In this document: positions 27,418 to 64,000 of the stretch, piece after piece
How the letters are laid out: every line of letters starts with the position of its first letter
Numbering within the stretch: position 1 is the first letter of the stretch
Assembly (NCBI GenBank): GCA_034438135.1
Contig: DAOTTL010000166.1
Location: 13,264 to 77,263 of the forward strand
DNA from: Ktedonobacteraceae bacterium
Lineage (GTDB): Bacteria > Chloroflexota > Ktedonobacteria > Ktedonobacterales > Ktedonobacteraceae
Length of the DNA stretch: 64,000 nt
Direction: 5' to 3'
Program-made: the position numbers and the translations under genes
The notes under the pieces: generated by a model
Told to the model about the DNA's origin: nothing
What the model saw: the letters and a program-made list of their open reading frames with translations, nothing else
Databases searched by the model: none

Positions 27418-27940
27418 ATGACGCAAATAAAAGATGTGACGCACACAGGAGAGGGGGCATCCTTTTGCGTCATTCTGTTGCAGCGGCTCTGTAGGCCGCA
27501 CGAAGGGAAACCTGTGACGCGAATGACGCAAAGGCGCAAATATTCCTACCCTTTTCTCTCTTCTTCTTCTCTTTCTTCTTTTTTAAAGATAGATTCTAAA
27601 AAAGAAGGGGCCATTTTGCGTCATTTGCGTCACCTCATCCATTCGCACTAACTGGGAAGCGCCCTCATCCAGGTGACGCAAAATGTAGGGAGGAGTCAAT
27701 TTGTGTTATTTTGGCGATTTGCGTCACCTTTTGAGCGATTTGCGTCACCTTTTTTGGCTCGTTTGCACTGTTTTTTTGCCCGATTTGCACCACTTTTTAG
27801 TCTGATTACACCGCTTTTTGGCTCAAATTGCATCATTTTTGGGCTTATTGACGCTGTTTTTTTGGCTTGAAACTTGCTTTTTAGGGAGCTTTTCAAGCAG
27901 CGGCGGAAATTTTGCGTCACCTTGACGCTTTGCGTCACCC
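27418..27940. promoter_or_regulatory. Dense cluster of an 8-10 nt motif, TTTGCGTCAC / GTGACGCAAA, in both orientations
   Basis: There are seven exact TGCGTCA copies, at 27466, 27617, 27626, 27720, 27741, 27913 and 27931. There are four exact TGACGCA copies, at 27419, 27437, 27524 and 27674. Near-copies lie at 27515 and 27923. No credible ORF covers the region. Confidence 0.6.
27714..27884. repeat. Eight tandem degenerate direct repeats of 20-23 bp, each ending in a T-tract
   Basis: The units start at 27714, 27735, 27757, 27779, 27801, 27821, 27842 and 27865. Units 1 and 2 are GCGATTTGCGTCACCTTTT(TT)G. Later units decay (GCTCGTTTGCACTGTTTTTTTG, CCCGATTTGCACCACTTTTTAG, ...) but keep the T5-7 run plus G at about 21-bp phasing. 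Confidence 0.8.
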
Positions 27941-28133
27941 CTCCATCTGGCGTTTTTTTGAGCATGCTATTCCCCTTCTTATAGATTGCGCGAAGCGCTT
28001 ACTATAAATGTGAGTTATCCCTCCACTTTGCTGAGGCTTGCAAAACCCCTCCTCCTCCTCGAAAAAAGAAGAGGCGAAGAGCCTGTGTGGCGGGGTGGCC
28101 TGCACAGCTATAGACATGAAGTTAAGCCAAAAA

Positions 28134-28189
28134 AGGGGTGCAGGATCCTCCCTGCCGGGGTTTGGGGTGTCCCCAAAAACCCCTTTCCT
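28134..28189 (+). repeat. GC-rich G4/C4-run repeat element, second copy
   Basis: The sequence is AAGGGGTGCAGGATCCTCCCTGCCGGGGTTTGGGGTGTCCCCAAAAACCCCTTTCC. It shares the blocks GGGGTGCA ... GGGGT(C/T)TGGGG(C)TGT(G)CCCCAA ... CTTTCC with the copy at 7405-7463, in the opposite orientation. Confidence 0.65.
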
Positions 28190-28258
28190 TCTATTTCGCC
28201 GCTTTAACGGTAAAATAGAAGGGAGTGCAGAGGGCGTCCTTCTGCTAACTTCGTGTCT

Positions 28259-28335
28259 ATGGGCGGGGCGGCCTGCTGTGCAGGCCGAAAGCCTTTTGTC
28301 CTGCTTTTGCAAAAGCAGGAATGACTCATATATCC
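28259..28335 (+). repeat. About 77-bp hairpin-rich repeat element, copy 1 (just 3' of the monooxygenase stop)
   Basis: The sequence is ATGGGCGGGGCGGCCTGCTGTGCAGGCCGAAAGCCTTTTGTCCTGCTTTTGCAAAAGCAGGAATGACTCATATATCC. It contains the hairpin GGCCTGC-TGT-GCAGGCC and the perfect 20-bp palindrome CCTGCTTTTGCAAAAGCAGG (28300-28319). Confidence 0.8.
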
Positions 28336-28338
28336 TTC

Positions 28339-29640
28339 TTATGCACTCTTTTTTCGTGATATGAAGAGATTAGTAGCTCGTAGGGCGGTTTTTGCGAGTG
28401 CGCGTCTGGCAGGGTTTTCCATTACTAAAAGGTCCATCGATTGCTTTGAACTTTTGACAGCAGCAAAGCTGTACTGGAGCATTTCTGTAACATACTCCTT
28501 GAGTGCTTCAGAGAGCGTCTGCTCTTGTTTTGCGGCAGAGATCAGCTTCCGGCAGAGGAGTTGAGCGTCCCTGAGAGCGGTATTGCCACCTATCCCACGC
28601 GTCGGCGGCATACTATGAATAGCGTCTCCAAGCAGGGTGATATTCTGGCTCTCCCAGGGTGCAACCCGAGTGGCGATTCGCAAAGGAGTCGTAATGACCG
28701 AGTCTGGATCGGTCAGACGAACAACATGTCGCAGTGTAGGATGCCAGTCTTTGACCATATCCTGCGCAATCTGGAGCAGCTCTAATCCCGCCATATGTTG
28801 TAGTTCTTCTTGCCTCGGGTAGTTCTTTTTCCTGGTGATGAACGCCCAGAAGTAGTAATCGTTAGTATTCTCGAAAAGGGCACTTGACTCTTCAAGCAAT
28901 GCTTCTTCGTTGATGCCAATTGTACCCTGAGTTCGCTCTTCTGCCTTGCCGCTGAGGTTGTGAACAGCAGAGAAGAGACTACGACCCTTTGGACCAAGCA
29001 CAACATTTGCCCAGTCAAACTGGTTAGCAACAAGTAGCGAGTGGATTTCAGGGGTCAGAGGCACTTTGCCGATGACAGCTATGTTCCCAGTCTCAACACG
29101 GCTGGCCTGGGGTATGAATTGTTGGCGAATGCGGGAATGGCCTCCATCGGCTGCGACCAACAAATCACCGATCACGCTTGTGCCATCCTCAAAAAAAGCG
29201 GTTATAGACCCATCGGGGTTTTCTTGATAATGAGAGTAGGTTTTGTTGAAATGGACGATCTCATCCATCTCTGCCAGTAATACCTGGCGCAAGGTAATAC
29301 GGCTGACTGAGCGGGATGACTCAAGTGGATCATGCTGTTTGGATGGCTCCACGGAAAATGCCACCAGGCGATTGAGTTGCTCATCTCTCATCAGCAGACC
29401 TTTACCATCACCTCCGGTTGTCTTGATGTATATCTCAAAGAGACGAGGGGGCAGACAATCGTGTAATGCCTGGTTGCCCATCGCTTCTATGTGAATACGA
29501 TACCCCTGCAAACGTTCATTCCGATTCTGGTCGCGCTCATAAAGAGCAACGCTGATCCCGGCTTTTTTGAGTCCCTGAGCCAGACAAAGGCCACCAAGAC
29601 CACCACCAATAATCAAGACATGAAAAGACCGCTTAATCAT
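28339..29640 (-). CDS. FAD-dependent (class A flavoprotein) monooxygenase
   Basis: Three motifs fit the PF01494-type fold: the GxGxxG dinucleotide fold HVLIIGGGLGGLCLAQGLKKAGISVALYERD, the DG motif DLLVAADGGHSRIR, and the GD motif LLGDAIHSMPPTRGIGGNTALRDA. The ORF track starts at the GTG at 29646. The ATG at 29640 has AAGGAG 7 nt upstream and is preferred. Confidence 0.88.
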   Translation of the reverse strand: MIKRSFHVLIIGGGLGGLCLAQGLKKAGISVALYERDQNRNERLQGYRIHIEAMGNQALHDCLPPRLFEIYIKTTGGDGKGLLMRDEQLNRLVAFSVEPSKQHDPLESSRSVSRITLRQVLLAEMDEIVHFNKTYSHYQENPDGSITAFFEDGTSVIGDLLVAADGGHSRIRQQFIPQASRVETGNIAVIGKVPLTPEIHSLLVANQFDWANVVLGPKGRSLFSAVHNLSGKAEERTQGTIGINEEALLEESSALFENTNDYYFWAFITRKKNYPRQEELQHMAGLELLQIAQDMVKDWHPTLRHVVRLTDPDSVITTPLRIATRVAPWESQNITLLGDAIHSMPPTRGIGGNTALRDAQLLCRKLISAAKQEQTLSEALKEYVTEMLQYSFAAVKSSKQSMDLLVMENPARRALAKTALRATNLFISRKKSA

Positions 29641-29825
29641 ATGCACACTCCTTTCGAGAAATCAGATGCTGCGTTAAGACTAACGCCGAATAAATCAAGA
29701 ACCTGTATTTATTTTTGATACTTGTGTTTATAAAAGTATTCCATCATGTTCTTGTTTTTAGAGTATACTTTCAATGCAGATGCTATGTATCACCCTCGCA
29801 GGTGATTTAAAGGGTGAATTTTGGT

Positions 29826-30023: not shown

Positions 30024-30251
30024 TTACGACTGGTTGGCGTTCTCCTCCATTTTCTTGCGCAGGCTGAGTGGGCGCATATCAGTCCAGACCTCTTTGATAT
30101 AGGTCAGACATTCAGCCTTTAAACCGCTTTTCCCTGCATCCTTCCAACCGATTGCATTCTCGCGGTCGGCGGGCCAGATCGAATACTGTTCTTCGTGGTT
30201 GACAACGACTTTGTAGATTGTGGTATCTTCCTGTTCGTCTCTGCTACTCAT
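30024..30251 (-). CDS. mbtH: MbtH-like protein (NRPS adenylation-domain chaperone)
   Basis: The 75-aa protein contains [52 protein letters not shown]. This carries the invariant Trp residues and the NxExQYS(I/L)WP signature of the MbtH family. Its ATG lies 1 nt after the stop of the upstream 111-aa ORF. Confidence 0.93.
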
Positions 30252-30252
30252 A

Positions 30253-30588
30253 TTATGGTTTGACCTCCTCTAAAATGACGAGATGTCCTGTACCCTGCAA
30301 CGTCGCCAGATCGATGTCGGCGATGCAGCGTATTTTTACGTAGTTCAGCGTCAGGGTGCCCTCTATATGGACCGTCCCCTGCTCTGTCTCAAAATTTGCC
30401 TGGCTTGTATTAGTTGCCGCTTTATCAACTCTGACGCCCAGATCAGTGCCGCCGTGCGTATCGGTGAATTTGATAAAGACATATCCCATTTCTTCGACAC
30501 GCTGCCGCAACTCTGCAAGGGATGGCTGAGGCCCTCCGACGATCACGGGATGGTCGCCTTCGGCCAGGCGTTGAACGAGTTCATTCAT
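30253..30588 (-). CDS. Small protein of unknown function (111 aa), translationally coupled between the NRPS and mbtH
   Basis: The start forms an ATGA overlap with the NRPS stop (30585-30588), and AAGGAG lies 8 nt upstream of the ATG. The stop sits 1 nt before the mbtH ATG. The sequence is [55 protein letters not shown]...[20 protein letters not shown]. It has no signal peptide or TM segment, and I cannot assign a family by eye. Confidence 0.7.
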
Positions 30589-33500
30589 ACAAAGGACTCC
30601 TTTTCAATCCAGATCATCAAATCGCGCATATGTTGCTCCGGGTTTGTCACAATCTGCATCAGTAATTTGCGGAGATGGCTTAGTATCCGCGCAATTGCAA
30701 ACTGATCGAAGTAGCGCTGATAATAAGATATAACCAGTTCCAGCTCTTGTCCAGGAAAAACATCGATTCTGAGGGGGTATTCTTGCCTGGCAAAGAAAAA
30801 TGTGGGCATTTTGGGGAAGAACAGTACATGCTCATTCGCGCGGGAAAAAGGTTTTTCCAGTGTAGAGGCAAGCCCCTCGAAGTTCTGAAAAACGAGATAG
30901 CTCTCAAACAGCGGTTGTTGTCGGTTGATCCCGCTCCACTCATAGATCTTGCGCAAGGGTGTATATTCGTATTGCCGTAACTCTACTTGCCGCTCCTGGA
31001 GCTTTGTGAGCCATGGCAAGAGGAAGTCATCCGGTGACACGCGAATGCGTGCTGGCAATGTATTCATCAGAACTCCTACGATGGACTCGACGCCGGGCAG
31101 TTCCGCCGGACGTCCTGAGACGGAGACTCCAAAGGTGATCTCCTCTTCGCCGCTGTAATGGCTCAAAAGTAGTGCCCAGACACCTTGCAGTATCGTATTC
31201 GGCGTGAGATGGTGCTGCCGGGACAGCGCCTGTAGTGCCCTGGTCTGTGCGCTATCCAGTGAGAAGGCCTGGCTGGCAAAGCGCGAGTCCTTTTCCGTTT
31301 CCTGACTGCTTGCAGATGCACGATCTATCAATGGCGTCACTTTAAAGTCCTGTAATTCTCGTCGCCAGAATGCCTCTGCGGATACCATATCCTGCCGCCG
31401 CAGCCAGGCAATGTAGTCTTGATACGGACGGCTTCGCTCCCGTTGCAATTCTTTCCCTTGAGAGAACGCGTTGTAGAAAGTAAATGCCTCGTTGATAAGA
31501 AGCATAAAGCTCCAACCATCTGTGTTTATGTACCGGTTACTCAGGACGAATTGATAGCGGTTCTCAGTTACCTGAGCAACCAGTAGATAGAGTGCCGTTG
31601 GTTTTGTGAGTTCCAGACCACGCGCTCGCACACTTTGTAAGTAACGCTCCAGGCGCGTCGTTTGTTCTGTGGGAGAGAGGTGCCGCCAATCTCGCTGTTC
31701 CAGGGAAACGGTGCTCTCCTTGTGAACCAGTTGGAGCGGCTCATGCAGTCCTTCCCAGACGAAAGAGGTTCTCATCAGGGGATGTTGCGCCACTACCTGT
31801 TGCCATGCACGCTCGAAGGCCGGTGCATGGAATTTTCCCTCTATGAGCATGACCCTTTGCATGGAGTAGAGTCCAATTTCTGGCTCTGCGAGATAACGCG
31901 CTAACATGTGTTCTTGGAGAGGTGAAAGAGGATAGATATCTTCTATCTGCTGCTTGGAGCCTATCAGATGCTCAAGCTCCTGCGGCGCAAGATTTGCCAG
32001 CGAGAATGGCTGTGGTGTCGTCGGGGTTGCTGTTTCCGACCCTTCTGGCAGCGTCGAAGAAAGTTGAACGACGCCTGCCAGCTCGGCGATGGTCTGATAT
32101 TGAAACATCTGCTGAGGCGTGAGTTGGAGACCCGCCTGCCGGGCCTTTGCAATGATCAGGATGCTCCGAATAGAATCTCCACCCGCTTCAAAGAAATTGT
32201 TAGAGACTCCTATCCGGTCCAGACCAAGGACGCCCGCCCAGATTTCAGCCAGTCTTTCTTCGATCTTTGTGCGTGGCGCTACAAAGTTCTCTTCCAGCTC
32301 TGGTATGATAATGGGCGCTGGCAGTCCCTGCCGATCCAATTTTCCATTCGGCGTCAGGGGCAATGCCTCTAGCATAACGAAGTTTCCTGGTATCATGTAA
32401 TCGGGCAGCCATCTCTTGAGCGAGCTACGCAACCGGGCGATCAGTTCATAAGTCATTCTTGCTTGTAATGGATTGTTGACATAACTGTGCCAGGAATGAG
32501 GGCCTGTGTGTTTCTGGTCGATGGTGGACTGTTCTATTGTCTGCGTCTGACTTTGTCCCGCGTTCCTTTGCTGCAAGATGGCCGTGTAGCTGCCATCACG
32601 TCTGCCTTCTGACCAGCGCAGTTCAAGAGTATAAGGGAGTTCGTCGCATATGGTCCAGAGGTCTTCAGGATCGACACCTGCATCGTCGTCGTGCAATGGG
32701 TGATCGTGGAGAGTCTGACGCAGTTCACCCACTGTAGCGGAGTGCGGGAAGCTTTTAAGGAGAGTTAGAGCGTGCACTTCTCGCGCAAGGCGGGCATTGG
32801 GAATCCCAGTCAGACAGAGCCGCTCTGGTCTTGTCTCTATGAGCAACTGGCGCACGGCTGACACTGTGAGCATGTGCTCTTGCCAATCCAGTTTCTCTAT
32901 TCCAGCAACTGACGATCTGGCAGCGCCGAGGTGCAGCACTACATCGTAACGGAAGAGGGTAAGTTCATTGGTATGATGACCACGCTTCAACTGGATTTCT
33001 ACCCGGCTGATCTGTGGCAGGTGGTGCTGGAGAGCTATAAAAAATGCTGGATCAATCACAAGCTCGTTCTCTTGTTCTATCCGTTTACGTACTCGTTGCT
33101 GAAGCTGCTCAATGGAGAGCGTTTCCGAGGCCTGGAGCAGTTCGATCGAGTTATAAAAGGTTTCCAGCAGGGGGAGGCTACGTATGTCGCCTATAAAAAG
33201 CGAGCCATCGGGCGTGAGCAGTTGCACAGCCTGTTCCAGTACCTGGAGCAGGTAGTCGATGCCGGGAAAGTACTGAACGACCGAATTGAGGATGACCGTA
33301 TCAAAGCTTGCTGTCTCTATCCCGGTGAAGTCGTCCGCAGTTCGCAGTTCCAGTTGCACATGTGCTGAAGACTTTTCTAGTTGTTGCTGGAGAAGCTCCA
33401 GAACGTATGGAGAGAAGTCTGTGCCTCTATAGTGGTCACAGTGGGGAGCCAGGGGAAACAGCAGCAATCCTGTGCCACAGCCGATCTCCAGCACACGATG

Positions 33501-36500
33501 GGGTTGTAAAAGGAGAATCCGTTCGACCGTTTGATTGACCCATGCATGCATCTCTTCGTTAGAAAGAGGCAGGCCTGTATAGCTGCTGTTCCAACCTGCG
33601 ATATTGAAGGTTGCAGCGGATTGCGCTGCGGGATGCTCATACGCGTCATCGAAGACCTCACGCCAGCCGGAGATCTGTTCTGTGGAGAGACTGGCCTCTA
33701 TTTCGTGTTCCGATGCATGCGAGCTGAGAGCATGAGGAACTACGTAAGCCACCAGTTGTTGATTGCCAGAGACATCTTCACGGATCGCAGCGACACACTC
33801 CCGCACTTCTGGCTGTCCCGCCAGCACTGATTCGATCTCTCCGAGTTCAATGCGCAATCCCCGCAGCTTGACCTGTTCATCCAGGCGGCCAAGAAATTCA
33901 ATTCGTCCATCAGCGCGGTAACGTGCCAGGTCACCCGTCTTGTAGAGTCTCATGCCCTCGACATCACTGAATGGATCTGGCACAAAGCGCTCGGAGGTCA
34001 ATTGTGGACGATTTAGATAGCCTCTGGCCAGGCCAGTTCCCCCAATATGTAGTTCTCCTGCTACCCCGACCGGCACAGGTTGACCATACTGGTCCAGCAG
34101 ATAGATCTGGGTGTTGGCGATTGGACGCCCGATAGGTACGGTGTGCGCTTGCCGTTCAGGAGTACAGGCCCAACTGGTCACATCGATAGCCGCCTCTGTG
34201 GGACCGTACAGGTTATGTAATTCGGCTGGCAGACGTGCGAAGAAGCGTGTTTGCAGGTCGGTAGTCAGTGCTTCTCCGCTACAGATGACGCGTTTAAGAC
34301 TCTGACAGCGCTCCAGTCCTTGCTCTTCTAAAAACACATGGAGCATCGACGGTACAAAGTGGAGGGTTGTGATCTGCTGCTCGTGGATCAGTGTAATCAG
34401 GTAATTGCTGTCCCGGTGTCCCTCAGGACGAGCCAGGATCAGGCTGGCACCGTTCAGCAGCGGCCAGAAGAACTCCCAGACCGAGACATCAAAGCTGATA
34501 GGTGTTTTTTGCAACACCCGGTCTGTGACGTTTAATTGATAGGTTTGCTGCATCCATTGCAAGCGATTGATGATGCCGCGATGGGTATTCAGGACGCCCT
34601 TGGGCTTGCCGGTGGAACCGGAGGTATAGATCACATAGGCCGCGTTTGCTCCATCCGTTTGCCCTTCTGGTTTATCGCCACTCTGCCGCGCAATCTCTTC
34701 CCAGCAGCTATCCAGGCAGATGCATGTCTCTGTGACGAGTAGATCGCGTAACTTTTCATGGGTCAAGAGTACAGATACCCCGGCATCGGCAAGCATGAAC
34801 TCCAGGCGGTCCTTTGGGTATGTTGGATCTAAAGGCAGATAGGCTGCGCCAGCCTTGAGGATGCCTGACAGCACTACGACCAGCTCTGGCGACCTCTCCA
34901 TACAGACGCCGACCAGCGTTTCCGTTCCTACGCCAAGCTCTCGCAGATAGTTCGCAAGCTGGTTTGCCCGTTGATGCAATTCTCGATAGGACAGATGCTC
35001 ATCCTCAAAGACGAGTGCAATAGCGTCTGGTGTGCGTTCAGCCTGTTCTGCCAGCAGATGATGCAAGCCATGATACAGTGGATAGGCGGTCTGAGTCGCG
35101 TTCCACTCTGTCAGCAGTTGCAACCGCTCATCCTCCGTCATGAGTGGGAGATCTGAGATGCGCTGTGCGGGATCGGCCACGATACCTTCCAGCAGGGTAC
35201 GAAAATGTACCAGCAGGCGTGTGATGGTGGCTTCGTCAAACAGGTCAGTGTTATATTCCAGAATACCGAACAGTCCCTCGGAACCCTCCATCATCGATAG
35301 CCAGAGATCGAATTTAGCTGTCGCACTCTCTACATTCAAGAGCTTTACGGTCAGACCTGGCAGTCCCTGCGTTTCCTGAGGGGCATTTTGTAGGACAAGC
35401 ATGGCCTGAAAGAGTGGGTTGTGACTTAAGGCTCTTTCAGCGTCCAGAATGACTACAAGCTGCTCAAAGGGCATGTCCTGATATGCGTACGCTTCCAGGG
35501 CTTTTTCGCGTGTTCTCCGTAAGAGTTCTCGCAAAGAGGGGTTATTGGCGAGTGTACTGCGCAAGACAAGCGTATTGGCGAAAAATCCAATCAGCCCTTC
35601 GGTTTGCGAAAGGGTTCGATTGGCAATGGGTGTGCCCACCGCGAAATCATCCTGGCCAGTGTAGCGCGAGAGCAAGGTCTGGAAGGCTGCCAGCAGGGTC
35701 ATAAAGAGCGTCGCGCCTTCCTGCCGACTCAAGGCATTGAGTCCCTCAGAAAGAGTTTTGGACAACCTGAAGGTCTGTCGCGCTCCTTGAAAGGTCTGGA
35801 TGGCTGGTCGTGGCCGATCGGTAGGGAGTTCAAGCATGCTTGGCATCGCGCTAAGACGCTGTTTCCAGTACGTCGCTAAGCGTTCCAGGACCTCGTTTTG
35901 GAGCCATTCGCGTTGCCAGTGAGCATAGTCGGCATATTGAATGGGTAGCTCTGGCAACGGAGAAGGTTGTCCAGCGGCATAGGCCGTGTATAACGCAATC
36001 AATTCGCGGATAAATATGCCTAGAGACCAGCTATCAGAGACAATATGATGCATACTCAGCAGCAGCACATGCTCTTCCTCACGTAACCGCAGCAATGTAG
36101 TACGCAGCAATGGACCATGCGCCAGATCGAACGTGCGCTGCGCCTCCTCCGCGAGCAGGTCCCGAACAAGTGCGCTGCGCTGATCCTCACGCACCGTTCT
36201 CAGGTCAAGCACTGGCAGCGAGAGATGTAACGCCGGTATCACGCTTTGCAATGGCAGCTCATCCGAGCCTTCAGGGGCGATAAAAAGAGTGCGTAGCGCT
36301 TCATGCCGCCGCACGATCTCATTGAGACTCCGCTCCAGGGTCGTAATCTGAAGCTGTCCCTGTAAGAGCAAGCCCTCGGTAATGTTATAAGCAGCGCTAC
36401 CAGGGACCAACTGATCGAGAAACCAGAGCCGCTGCTGACCAAAGGACAGGCTACCAGGTCCAGGCGTCGGACGTACAGGAATACGTGGCGCTCCTGTCTT

Positions 36501-61732: not shown

Positions 61733-64000
61733 TCATAGTTTGCTGACCTGAGAGGCCATAGCGAAGCTGATGCTCAATTGTTGTGCCAACTCCTGTACCT
61801 GTGGTGTTTGCAGCAGCGTATAGTGTGTACCTGGCAGTTGATGGACGATACCCTTTGAAGAGAGCAGCGATGCCCAGCCGCGATCTGCTGACTGGTTAGC
61901 ACTATCCGGTCGCACGCTGGCATTAAAAAAAGTCACGGGACCTGCATATGGCTGTGCGCGATAATGTTGGATTGCGAGCGCGTTGCTCTTAAAGGTACGG
62001 AATAGATGCTCAATCTGGGCCAGACCAGTTCCCGCAGGCAAGATCTGAGCCTGTTGAGCCTGCTCTAATAGCCATAGAAGCTGTTGTTGCTCGTCGAGTT
62101 GTTTCCATTGAGAGACTAACGGCACTAAGGAAAAACCGAAAAGGGCACTGAGATCCTGGACAAAGTGAGTCATAATCTGCAACTCACTGATCGGATGGGC
62201 CTGGTGAAGTGCAGGTGCGTCGCTATCAATTAAAGCGAGTAGCGCAACGTTTTGCTGCTGGCGGCTCAGTTGCTGGGCCATCTCAAAGGCAATGACTCCA
62301 CCAAGCGACCACCCTCCCAGGAGATAAGGGCCGTTTGGCAAAATCTGTTGAAGTGCTTCAATATAGTGGGTTGCGAGCTGTTCCAGAGGAATATAGACCT
62401 GACCGGCGGTTAAATCGGGCATCTGTAGAGCATAGATGGGTCGCGTCGTGCCCAGGTACCGCGCAAGCTGAACATAACAGAAGATCTCGCCCCCAATGGG
62501 ATGGATACAGAAGAAGGGTAGTGCATCTCCTGCTGTTTGGAGCGCAACCAGGGGTGTGCGTGCTGGTATCTTCTGCTGGAGAACTTCTGCCATCTGTTCA
62601 ATGGTAGGAGCTTGAAAGAGGATTGAGAGCGGAAGCTTCAGCGAGAAGGTCAACTGGATCTGTGCAAGCAGGCGAACGGCGAGCAGAGAGTGTCCACCGA
62701 GCGCAAAAAAATTATCAGTCATGCCGATAGGCTGCACCTGAAGCAGATCTTCCCAGATGCTCACAAGCTGTATTTCTATACTCGTGCGTGGCGTAAGCGT
62801 CTCTCCTGTCGGCTGCTCGCGACTGCTCGACGCTGGTGGAGGGAGTGCATGGCGATTTACTTTCCCGGTGGTAGTCAACGGGAACGCTGCCAGAAAGATG
62901 AGATGCGAAGGAAGCATATAAGAGGGGAGTCGTGTGCGTAGAAATTCTTGCAGCGTAAAGGCAGAAGCCTCTTCCCCTTCAGGGACTACATAGGCCACCA
63001 GCCGCTTTACCCCGGGTGTATCTTCGCGCAAAAGCACCACACTCGCACGCACCTGAGGATGTTGATCGAGTAAAGCTTCGATCTCACCCAGCTCGATGCG
63101 ATAGCCATTGAGTTTCACCTGTTGATCAAAGCGTCCAATATATTCCAGTTCACCGTCCGAGCGATAGCGTACCTGATCCCCTGTACGGTAAAGTCTTGCT
63201 CCGGGCTGCGGACTAAAGGGATCGGGCACGAAGCGCTCCGCGGTCAGGTCGGGTCGCTGGAGATAGCCGGTCGCGACTCCAGCACCACCGATGAAGAGTT
63301 CACCTGCGACTCCATCTGGTGTCAGGTTGCCATAAGCATCAAGAATATAGGTTGTGGTATTGATCAATGGTCTGCCAATGGGGATGCGTTGCTCTACAGA
63401 CTCTAAGGGCCAGAACGTTGCATAGATAGTGGTCTCGGTGGGGCCATAAGCATTGATAATCCTGGCATGAGGCAGCAGATCTTTCAACTGCCTGGCGAGC
63501 GAGGTGGGAAAGGGCTCACCACCCAGGATCACGTAGTCAAGGGTACTGAGCGCCTCACAGGTGGCTGGATCGACCAGAAGAAGTTGCATCAATGAGGGCG
63601 TGCCTTGAAGATGGGTAACGCCGTAGCGTGTAAGCTGCGCCGCGAAAGTAGTCTCGGAGTGTTGAGAATGGCTGAGATCATCCTGGATGATGACGTGGAA
63701 GCCGCGCGTAAAGGTCCAGAGAATTTCAATCACGGAGATGTCGAAGGCAATGCTGGCCGCTGTCAGCCAGACGCCGGGTCGTTGCATTTGCAGGTAGCTA
63801 TCCGTAGCGGCAAAGATATTGAGCACGTTGCGACGATTGATCATCACCCCTTTGGGCAGACCCGTTGAGCCAGAGGTATAGATAAGATAGGCGATATCTT
63901 CGGGGATACCCCGTGGAACCGGGTTGGGGAGATCGCTGCTCATTGAGATCTGCATGATCTCATCTATTTTGAGGAGTGGACCTGCATAGGGTGGCAGCAT
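61733..64000 (-). CDS. NRPS, C-terminal part only (continues past right edge): ...A-T-TE
   Basis: Motifs present: A3 IAYLIYTSGSTGLPKG, A5 NAYGPTETT, A7 YRTGDQVRY, A8 GRFDQQVKLNGYRIELGEIE and A10 TTTGKVNR. The T domain reads FFALGGHSLLAVRL (Ser codon 62687-62689). The thioesterase has FFCIHPIGGE, GGWSLGG (Ser codon 62306-62308), LIDSDAP and LPGTHYTLL. The A1/A2 cores are missing, so the Met at 64000 is internal and is not the start. Confidence 0.92.
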   Translation of the reverse strand: MLPPYAGPLLKIDEIMQISMSSDLPNPVPRGIPEDIAYLIYTSGSTGLPKGVMINRRNVLNIFAATDSYLQMQRPGVWLTAASIAFDISVIEILWTFTRGFHVIIQDDLSHSQHSETTFAAQLTRYGVTHLQGTPSLMQLLLVDPATCEALSTLDYVILGGEPFPTSLARQLKDLLPHARIINAYGPTETTIYATFWPLESVEQRIPIGRPLINTTTYILDAYGNLTPDGVAGELFIGGAGVATGYLQRPDLTAERFVPDPFSPQPGARLYRTGDQVRYRSDGELEYIGRFDQQVKLNGYRIELGEIEALLDQHPQVRASVVLLREDTPGVKRLVAYVVPEGEEASAFTLQEFLRTRLPSYMLPSHLIFLAAFPLTTTGKVNRHALPPPASSSREQPTGETLTPRTSIEIQLVSIWEDLLQVQPIGMTDNFFALGGHSLLAVRLLAQIQLTFSLKLPLSILFQAPTIEQMAEVLQQKIPARTPLVALQTAGDALPFFCIHPIGGEIFCYVQLARYLGTTRPIYALQMPDLTAGQVYIPLEQLATHYIEALQQILPNGPYLLGGWSLGGVIAFEMAQQLSRQQQNVALLALIDSDAPALHQAHPISELQIMTHFVQDLSALFGFSLVPLVSQWKQLDEQQQLLWLLEQAQQAQILPAGTGLAQIEHLFRTFKSNALAIQHYRAQPYAGPVTFFNASVRPDSANQSADRGWASLLSSKGIVHQLPGTHYTLLQTPQVQELAQQLSISFAMASQVSKL
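61736..62530 (-). other. Type I thioesterase (TE) domain
   Basis: It carries the GWSLGG nucleophile elbow (Ser at 62306-62308), a candidate Asp in LIDSDAP and a candidate His in PGTHYTLL. It lies at the C-terminus of the protein. Confidence 0.85.

Follow-up and report, generated by a model that had tools for sequence, protein, structure and literature searches.

How does a nonribosomal peptide assembly line release its product when it ends in a condensation-like domain that has lost both catalytic histidines? The question is raised by an NRPS (nonribosomal peptide synthetase) of 2007 aa, encoded at 30585-36608 on the minus strand of a 64,000-nucleotide stretch of DNA from a Ktedonobacteraceae bacterium (Chloroflexota; GenBank assembly GCA_034438135.1, contig DAOTTL010000166.1, positions 13,264 to 77,263), which we call the window. 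A first-pass annotation made from the letters alone took the last domain of this protein, hereafter C_T, for an inactive fold left over from a T-E-C unit and suggested, as speculation, that it could serve as a recruitment or docking platform. The best explanation overall, to which we give about even weight, is instead that C_T is a working chain-release domain evolved from the DCL-type condensation domain of such a unit.

A DCL-type domain with both catalytic histidines replaced

The synthetase reads C(54-499)-A(520-980)-MT(1001-1250)-T(1446-1520)-C-like(1551-2007). Residues are counted from the TTG at 36608, which makes the ATG at 36596 used in the first-pass annotation residue 5. Domains of the window genes were mapped with Pfam and with phmmer using seeds from within the window, and the translation holds every string quoted earlier at the place given for it. 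The relevant features, all on the minus strand, are as follows.

35112..36449, minus strand: condensation domain C1 (HHIVSDSWS), which would accept the polyketide-extended chain
33669..35051, minus strand: adenylation domain, N-terminal part (Pfam AMP-binding)
32859..33608, minus strand: N-methyltransferase (MT) domain inside the A domain (Pfam Methyltransf_12/11/25)
32049..32273, minus strand: carrier T with the E-type core GGDSI, core at 32163-32183 (Pfam/phmmer)
31959..32048, minus strand: T-to-C_T linker, residues 1521-1550, including TPQPFSLANLAPQELEHLI, like an E-to-C junction
30588..31958, minus strand: terminal condensation-like domain (C_T), residues 1551-2007 (Pfam Condensation and phmmer)
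31509..31541, minus strand: altered core motif SNRYINTDGWS, residues 1690-1700, with R1692 and Y1693 in place of HH and D-G-W-S kept
30756..30791, minus strand: strand ARQEYPLRIDVF with Glu1943 and Arg1947, where canonical DCL domains read T-N-Y-P-L-T

C_T had been described as a full-length domain of DCL origin, and this is borne out. It matches Pfam Condensation, its best sequence match in the PDB is the McyB C domain (6e-98), and its best fold matches there (SrfA-C, PvdL E2-C3, TycB1 and McyB) are C domains that follow an E domain. Its C1 motif is IEDIYPLSPLQEHML. A structure model had been suggested as a check; in the AlphaFold2 model of the domain (pLDDT 88.9, pTM 0.89) the fold is intact.

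Both catalytic histidines are indeed gone. SNRYINTDGWS lies gap-free on HHxxxDGWS, and in the HMMER alignment 'vlsnryintdgws' pairs with McyB 'lcnhhhiildgws' in the same way, so the His motif has been replaced and not shifted. No displaced copy, the finding named beforehand as fatal to the claim, turned up in the domain: its sole HH dipeptide (SRQHHLTPNT) belongs to the conserved RQHxLTxNT helix and is thus well removed from the active site. The paralogue motif SYHHILLDGWS and the junction TPSDFPLARLDQARLDRF, to which the core motif and linker of C_T had been compared, both occur in gene 39787-50979.

The T core FFEAGGDSIRS (residues 1476-1482, window 32163-32183) had been called E-type. Seventeen T cores of the window match GG[HD]S[LIAV], fifteen as GGHSL and two as GGDSI; one GGDSI core precedes the window's sole E domain, in gene 39787-50979, and the other precedes C_T. 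Carriers of the GGDSI type feed E domains, a rule that Linne et al. 2001 reportedly established and that we apply together with these counts and those in the relatives of C_T described below; neither the Florine paper nor the 2023 motif paper yielded a statement of it. The gap of about 30 residues between T and C_T leaves no room for an E domain, again as had been noted.

Set against the definition of a DCL domain, C_T has the C fold and DCL-type motifs (Pfam Condensation; McyB, PvdL and SrfA-C as best sequence or fold matches), lacks HHxxxDG with its second His, and is found in the order T, C_T, stop codon where an E domain before and an own A-T after would be expected. Two other classes were considered and rejected. 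Dual E/C domains are marked by a second, N-terminal His motif, HH[I/L]xxxxGD (PMC1894796), and the N-terminal region of C_T, QEHMLARYLAEPEIGLY, has no HH and no GD. A heterocyclisation (Cy) domain would carry DxxxxD, as does the window's true Cy domain (DALMIDAGS); C_T reads NRYINTD.

A clade of terminal domains with its own signature

The best 120 homologues of C_T are at most about 45% identical to it and are mostly HH-type DCL domains. Among the relatives is a metagenomic orthologue (P0051, locus L001) that also reads SNRY and is 53-56% identical to the window domain, and in further homologues the HH site holds N, H, D or S and then Y or F. In a neighbor-joining tree these xY/xF domains and that of the window form a group separate from about 100 HH relatives, with P0007 branching just outside the main group. 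With a subfamily hidden Markov model (HMM), another search of the database and a scan of metagenomes, the collection grew to 18 aligned clade domains in addition to the window's own, and subfamily-HMM scores separate the clade from the HH relatives. All 19 xY/xF domains end 0-8 residues before a stop codon. Most HH relatives continue into A or TauD domains or trailing sequence, and the few that are terminal belong to split modules or lie at contig ends.

The signature of the clade was compared (n=18) with 251 non-redundant DCL-like relatives, at the following positions; the relatives were chosen for carrying HH, which fixes their count at position 1693.

Position 1693: clade Tyr 17, Phe 1; HH relatives His 251/251
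Position 1943: clade Glu 18/18; HH relatives Asn 182/251
Position 1947: clade Arg 18/18; HH relatives Thr 174/251
Position 1963: clade Tyr 15/18; HH relatives Asp 194/251
Position 1578: clade Pro 14/18; HH relatives Ser 178/251

At four marker positions the clade residues are almost never found among the 251 HH relatives. The clade retains Asp-Gly-Trp-Ser after the motif, and position 1692, that of the first His, varies (H, N, R, D, S), so that the Arg of the window's RY is incidental and the Tyr is constant. Glu1943 and Arg1947 belong to a single segment, at its positions i and i+4, and Glu1943 comes shortly before strand 1946-1951 in the AlphaFold2 model; the corresponding strand in Cy domains presumably carries catalytic residues. 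Every clade member with a visible T has GGDS(I/L) in the carrier before C_T. The window domain itself is terminal, has Tyr at the second-His site, Glu1943 and Arg1947, and follows a GGDSI carrier. By these sequence features it is not a one-off relic but a member of a distinct, DCL-derived terminal clade, and the newly fixed residues point to a change of function, not to decay.

A profile search of 1.84 billion representatives yielded no new clade members, since its scores add up across the domains of a protein and nothing but giant multi-domain NRPSs was ranked. It served solely as a negative control, in which the xY motif is absent from all 683 C-like domains of 150 very large NRPSs. Scanning GTDB-representative contigs with the single domain gave no close relative, its matches being a Chloroflexia locus (L002, frameshifted and outside the clade) and a Streptomyces fragment.

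Some other features of the homologue set may be recorded here. Several further small DCL-like groups have HH replaced by PL, NL, HM or YH (P0011/P0046/P0117, P0098/P0103/P0109, P0066/P0072/P0101 and P0032/P0077/P0093/P0120) and represent additional non-canonical lineages of C domains; most of these proteins stand alone and are about 465 aa long. Many C-TauD fusions with HH also occur among the DCL-like homologues. At 2620-2790 of L001 the C_T frame is broken by runs of X and by a stretch resembling a prepilin N-terminus (RPAFSLIEVIVLFALLAF); the metagenome scaffold is probably chimeric or gapped there, and the break is not biology.

Decay and repeated loss of the E domain

The proposed descent from a T-E-C unit that lost its E core is supported by relatives in which an E domain can still be recognized. 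Seven members (P0127, P0139, P0149, P0003, P0082, L014 and L018) still have, after the GGDSI T and before the terminal C, a domain that is E-like, and it is degenerate wherever it could be read: the HHxxxD region has decayed to HQ, QA or HP in P0127, P0139 and P0149, and EGHGRE is degenerate in all five aligned members (these three, P0003 and P0082, the contigs of the latter two holding only the C-terminal part of E). At least eight members, including the window, L001, L004, P0068, P0007/L019, P0122 and P0174, have no E domain. The linker resembles an E-to-C junction: where an E-like domain is present, GGYTPSDFPLAxLxQxQL stands at the linker position, and E-less members keep the junction peptide DFPLAxLxxxxLxxLL directly after T (in the window, PFSLANLAPQELEHLI). 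The retention of a degenerate E in several members indicates that E loss is real history, and the interleaving of E-bearing and E-less forms in the tree indicates that it happened repeatedly. Since E decay shows what disuse does in this lineage, the retention of a full-length C_T beside it is telling.

A conserved cassette without a release domain of known type

Upstream DNA was sufficient at three loci (the window, L004 and L006), and in all three a KS-AT-ACP module with no KR is followed by C-A-MT-T-(E*)-C_T, E* being the degenerate E.

Window locus: upstream NRPS modules; KS-AT-ACP, C-A-MT-T-C_T; downstream the 111-aa protein, MbtH, FAD-dependent monooxygenase and MFS transporter
L004: upstream NRPS; KS-AT-ACP, C(HHIISDSWS)-A-MT, T, C_T; downstream MFS
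L006: nothing upstream, the cassette being the whole cluster; KS-AT-ACP, C-A, MT, T-E*-C_T; downstream unrelated genes

The polyketide synthase (PKS) module of the window, mapped with Pfam, is this:

36713..39790, minus strand: KS-AT-ACP, with orthologues in L004 and L006 that likewise stand ahead of the C-A-MT-T-C_T gene

Its KS has the Cys (TACSTS) and both His (HGTGT, NIGH), and its AT carries GHSLG and the malonyl-type HAFH; domain mapping found no KR, DH or ER in it. Between loci the cassette domains are 67-73% (KS), 59-62% (AT), 59-62% (C1), 63-68% (A), 59-61% (MT, in L001, L004 and L006), 63-78% (T) and 46-56% (C_T) identical. MT is absent from P0068 and from the P0007/L019 subgroup, which read A-T-C_T.

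No TE or R domain occurs in the C_T assembly line of the window, L004 or L006, and no NRPS lies downstream of C_T in L001, L004, L005, L006, L008, L009, L018 or L019. What does follow is an MFS transporter at five loci, including the window, those of the other four belonging to the same families as the window's (in L001, L004 and L009; after SHMT in L019), and unrelated genes in L005, L006, L008 and L018.

Locus L006 is JGI 3300054962 contig Ga0556603_000031, in which several genes are split by frameshifts. At 36026-36052 (minus strand, residues 187-195) the C1 motif of the window, HHIVSDSWS, has Ser for the Gly of HHxxxDG; L004 (5303-9055) reads HHIISDSWS at the same site, so the substitution may mark the C1 of the cassette.

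Proposed release by Dieckmann cyclisation

Two sets of observations lead us to conclude that C_T is probably a functional release catalyst. The first concerns the domain itself: it belongs to a distinct clade, stands at the protein terminus, carries co-ordinated substitutions, was retained while E decayed, and has an intact predicted fold. The second concerns its setting, a conserved cassette with no TE or R domain and no downstream NRPS, often with an MFS gene next.

What chemistry it would perform is suggested by the order of the modules. A beta-ketoacyl-aminoacyl thioester made by a non-reducing PKS and a last NRPS module has an established fate, Dieckmann cyclisation to a tetramic acid. 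In the mechanism that we propose, KS-AT-ACP, having no KR, would lengthen the upstream peptidyl chain by a malonyl unit to give a beta-keto thioester, and C1 would join this chain to the N-methyl-aminoacyl-S-T formed by A(MT)-T. The GGDSI carrier would then bring the beta-ketoacyl-N-methyl-aminoacyl thioester to the donor side of C_T, which, without an acceptor substrate, would help the C2 carbanion to attack the thioester. The product, an N-methyl 3-acyl-pyrrolidine-2,4-dione (tetramic acid), would be released and exported by the MFS pump; in the window its acyl group would be the upstream peptide extended by one ketide. Tyr1693, Glu1943 and Arg1947 are candidate catalytic or enolate-stabilising residues in place of the His site.

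There is precedent for such a role. In PMC11310079, C-terminal condensation-like domains are proposed to form the tetramate of malonomycin and epifadin; the terminal domains of the malonomycin synthetase and of EfiE share with C_T their position and logic (PKS extension, a last NRPS module, and a C-like domain in place of TE/R). In that source these assignments are themselves proposals from domain order, and the likeness to C_T that we draw is one of position and domain order, the window having a terminal C-like domain after PKS and then NRPS, with no TE/R. A plasmid tblastn gave no Staphylococcus match among the best matches listed, where ordinary DCL domains dominate. The minimal cluster L006 adds to this, Dieckmann closure being the only chemically plausible intramolecular release there. 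Taking together the PKS-then-NRPS logic, the malonomycin and epifadin precedent and the L006 cluster, we read C_T as a tetramate-closing release domain, and rate the odds that its reaction is Dieckmann cyclisation to an N-methyl 3-acyl-tetramic acid as roughly balanced.

Several points weigh against this chemistry. It is derived from assembly-line logic; C_T is the least conserved domain of the cassette; MT is not universal, as P0068 and L019 show; and the association with a PKS, although seen in 3/3 loci, comes from a small sample. Beta-ketoacyl-aminoacyl thioesters can also cyclise spontaneously, so C_T might merely gate or accelerate release. Finally, the established bacterial Dieckmann cyclases described in PMC10956176 are thioesterase-like and not C-like.

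Alternatives to Dieckmann release

The alternative that survives best, though we consider it unlikely, is that C_T releases the chain by other chemistry, either thioester hydrolysis or transfer to a small soluble nucleophile. The terminal position, the lack of TE/R and the clade signature would fit release of any kind, some clade members have no MT, reviews cite C domains with hydrolytic roles, and the CroK-C2 domain of crocacin biosynthesis is said to hydrolyse a thioester. Hydrolysis or amine capture would, however, leave the conserved pairing with a non-reducing KS-AT-ACP unexplained, and the cluster L006 offers no intramolecular option other than Dieckmann closure. Moreover, the characterised terminal C domain that captures an amine, that of glidonin, keeps a functional HHxxxDG (PMC10587159).

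Less probable still, and in our estimate quite improbable, is that C_T is a dead fold kept as a structural cap or X-like docking platform, with release occurring spontaneously or through a distant enzyme. Both histidines are lost, C_T evolves faster than its cassette neighbours, beta-keto-amide thioesters can by general chemistry self-cyclise, and the gene for the 111-aa protein, one of the docking partners put forward in the first-pass annotation, is translationally coupled to the synthetase. A dead fold would not, however, be expected to have Glu1943 and Arg1947 invariant and Tyr1693 nearly so, at positions where these residues are essentially absent in the 251 HH relatives, nor to stay full length while the adjacent E decays; C_T is also the only candidate release domain of the cassette. 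Another partner suggested, the monooxygenase, shares with the 111-aa protein the property that neither lies beside C_T in L001, L004, L005, L006, L008, L009, L018 or L019, so neither is a conserved partner, and the 111-aa gene accompanies MbtH also at loci that have no adjacent NRPS. As for the analogy with the glycopeptide X domain, no P450 was seen among the window ORFs (open reading frames) scanned, and the X domain is a distant match. What stands of the earlier interpretation is thus the DCL origin, the loss of the histidines, the E-type carrier and the loss of E; the docking role, its partners and the X analogy are not supported.

A split module, with C_T as its C half condensing the chain onto the A-T that starts gene 20459-25777, in one long line, is very improbable: this gene is found four genes downstream on the same strand and terminal HH-type C domains of split modules exist, but C_T has lost both histidines, eight other loci have no NRPS after the homologous domain, and an A-T start is the normal loading-module form of a separate line.

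Relation to known condensation-fold and cyclase domains

DCL domains such as McyB-C1, the SrfA-C C domain and PvdL C3 are closest to C_T in sequence (up to about 45% identity) and in fold. They share with it the C1, C2 and C4-C7 motifs, the D-G-W-S of C3 and an N-terminal junction of the E-to-C type. C_T differs from them in having R-Y for HH and the clade-specific replacements of Asn by Glu, Thr by Arg and Asp by Tyr, and in standing at the protein terminus with no active E before it and no A-T after it.

The glycopeptide X domain (PDB 4tx2) is likewise a C fold with the second His replaced that follows the last carrier. It is, however, LCL-derived with HR...R (PMC1894796), precedes a TE and recruits P450s, whereas DCL domains are the nearest relatives of C_T, no TE follows it, and 4tx2 is its fold match only at rank 49, with 20% identity; assignment of C_T as an X domain was rejected. 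So was assignment as a fungal terminal C_T domain of the TqaA type (PDB 5dij), which also is a terminal C fold that releases a chain without an acceptor carrier. The fungal domain has SHxxxD with an essential second His (PMC10510592) and makes macrolactams, while the bacterial domain has Tyr at that position; at 20% identity and fold rank 38, the two are of independent origin.

The same reaction on the same kind of substrate as proposed for C_T is carried out by thioesterase-like domains in bacteria and, in fungi, by R* domains. These cyclases differ in architecture, having an alpha/beta-hydrolase or SDR fold in contrast to the chloramphenicol-acetyltransferase-like C fold of C_T.

Other genes of the window

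All large genes of the window are on the minus strand. Upstream of the PKS module and downstream of the synthetase lie the following.

61733-64000, minus strand: ...A-T-TE, the end of another (third) assembly line
50969-60808, minus strand: C-A-T x3
39787-50979, minus strand: C-A-T(GGDSI)-E-C(SYHHILLDGWS)-A-T-C-A-T
30253..30588, minus strand: conserved 111-aa protein, whose ATG overlaps the synthetase stop codon (ATGA)
30024..30251, minus strand: MbtH-like gene, 75 aa (Pfam MbtH 74.5 bits), beginning 1 nt after the 111-aa gene
28339..29646, minus strand: FAD-dependent monooxygenase (FAD_binding_3 class)
25728..27008, minus strand: MFS_3/MFS_1 transporter (Pfam), a likely exporter

The spacing of the synthetase, 111-aa and MbtH genes, the last of which the first-pass annotation does not list, looks like translational coupling. 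Homologues of the 111-aa protein number more than 1000; the top 120 are 72-100% identical, and those with names come from Ktedonobacteraceae and Dictyobacter. These names, and the existence of identical copies of the protein, point to a member of the Ktedonobacteria as the source of the window. Its gene adjoins MbtH in every locus examined (L010-L013), two of them without an adjacent NRPS. The protein scores 31 bits for the eukaryotic CBF_beta family, above the Pfam gathering threshold of 25. Some records name it MbtH-like, an identity that we reject since it has no MbtH Pfam match and a real MbtH adjoins it. On gene content, the monooxygenase is a window-specific addition outside the conserved cassette. 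The 1.3 kb between the MFS and monooxygenase genes (27009-28338) hold no convincing ORF and have a G+C of about 0.49, versus 0.54; they may be the remnant of an insertion that brought the monooxygenase.

A second assembly line occupies 748-25777 of the minus strand and reads A-T-C-A-T; C-A-T x3; KS-AT-ACP; C-A-T-Cy-A-T. It repeats the succession of KS-AT-ACP and C-A-T but continues with the true Cy domain (DALMIDAGS) and A-T, and has no terminal C.

Significance

Condensation-fold domains are known to form amides, esters, beta-lactams and heterocycles, and to act in dehydration, epimerisation and enzyme recruitment. Terminal C-like release domains are already known as well, and for some of them a tetramate role has been proposed; in the literature we found no description of a DCL-derived xY clade, of its Tyr/Glu/Arg signature, of a decaying E partner or of a portable cassette. 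Our broadest proposal, made tentatively and with somewhat less than even confidence, is that the xY clade comprises C-C bond-forming Dieckmann cyclases of the condensation fold, with a Tyr/Glu/Arg site in place of the His site, which were born from a DCL domain as its E partner decayed and for which a portable tetramate-capping cassette (KS-AT-ACP plus C-A-MT-T-C_T) is the vehicle in Chloroflexota and other soil bacteria.

In the E-like domains of the clade, decay and deletion of E can be followed as a natural series, which on this proposal would show how an E domain disappears after its neighbour has changed function. With its two genes, the minimal cluster L006 is the simplest system for the proposed chemistry and makes the idea directly testable. 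If the proposal is true, the clade signature would allow tetramate-type release to be predicted in genome mining, where xY domains presumably still pass for ordinary or inactive C domains, and the cassette would be a compact means of appending a tetramic-acid warhead to peptides.

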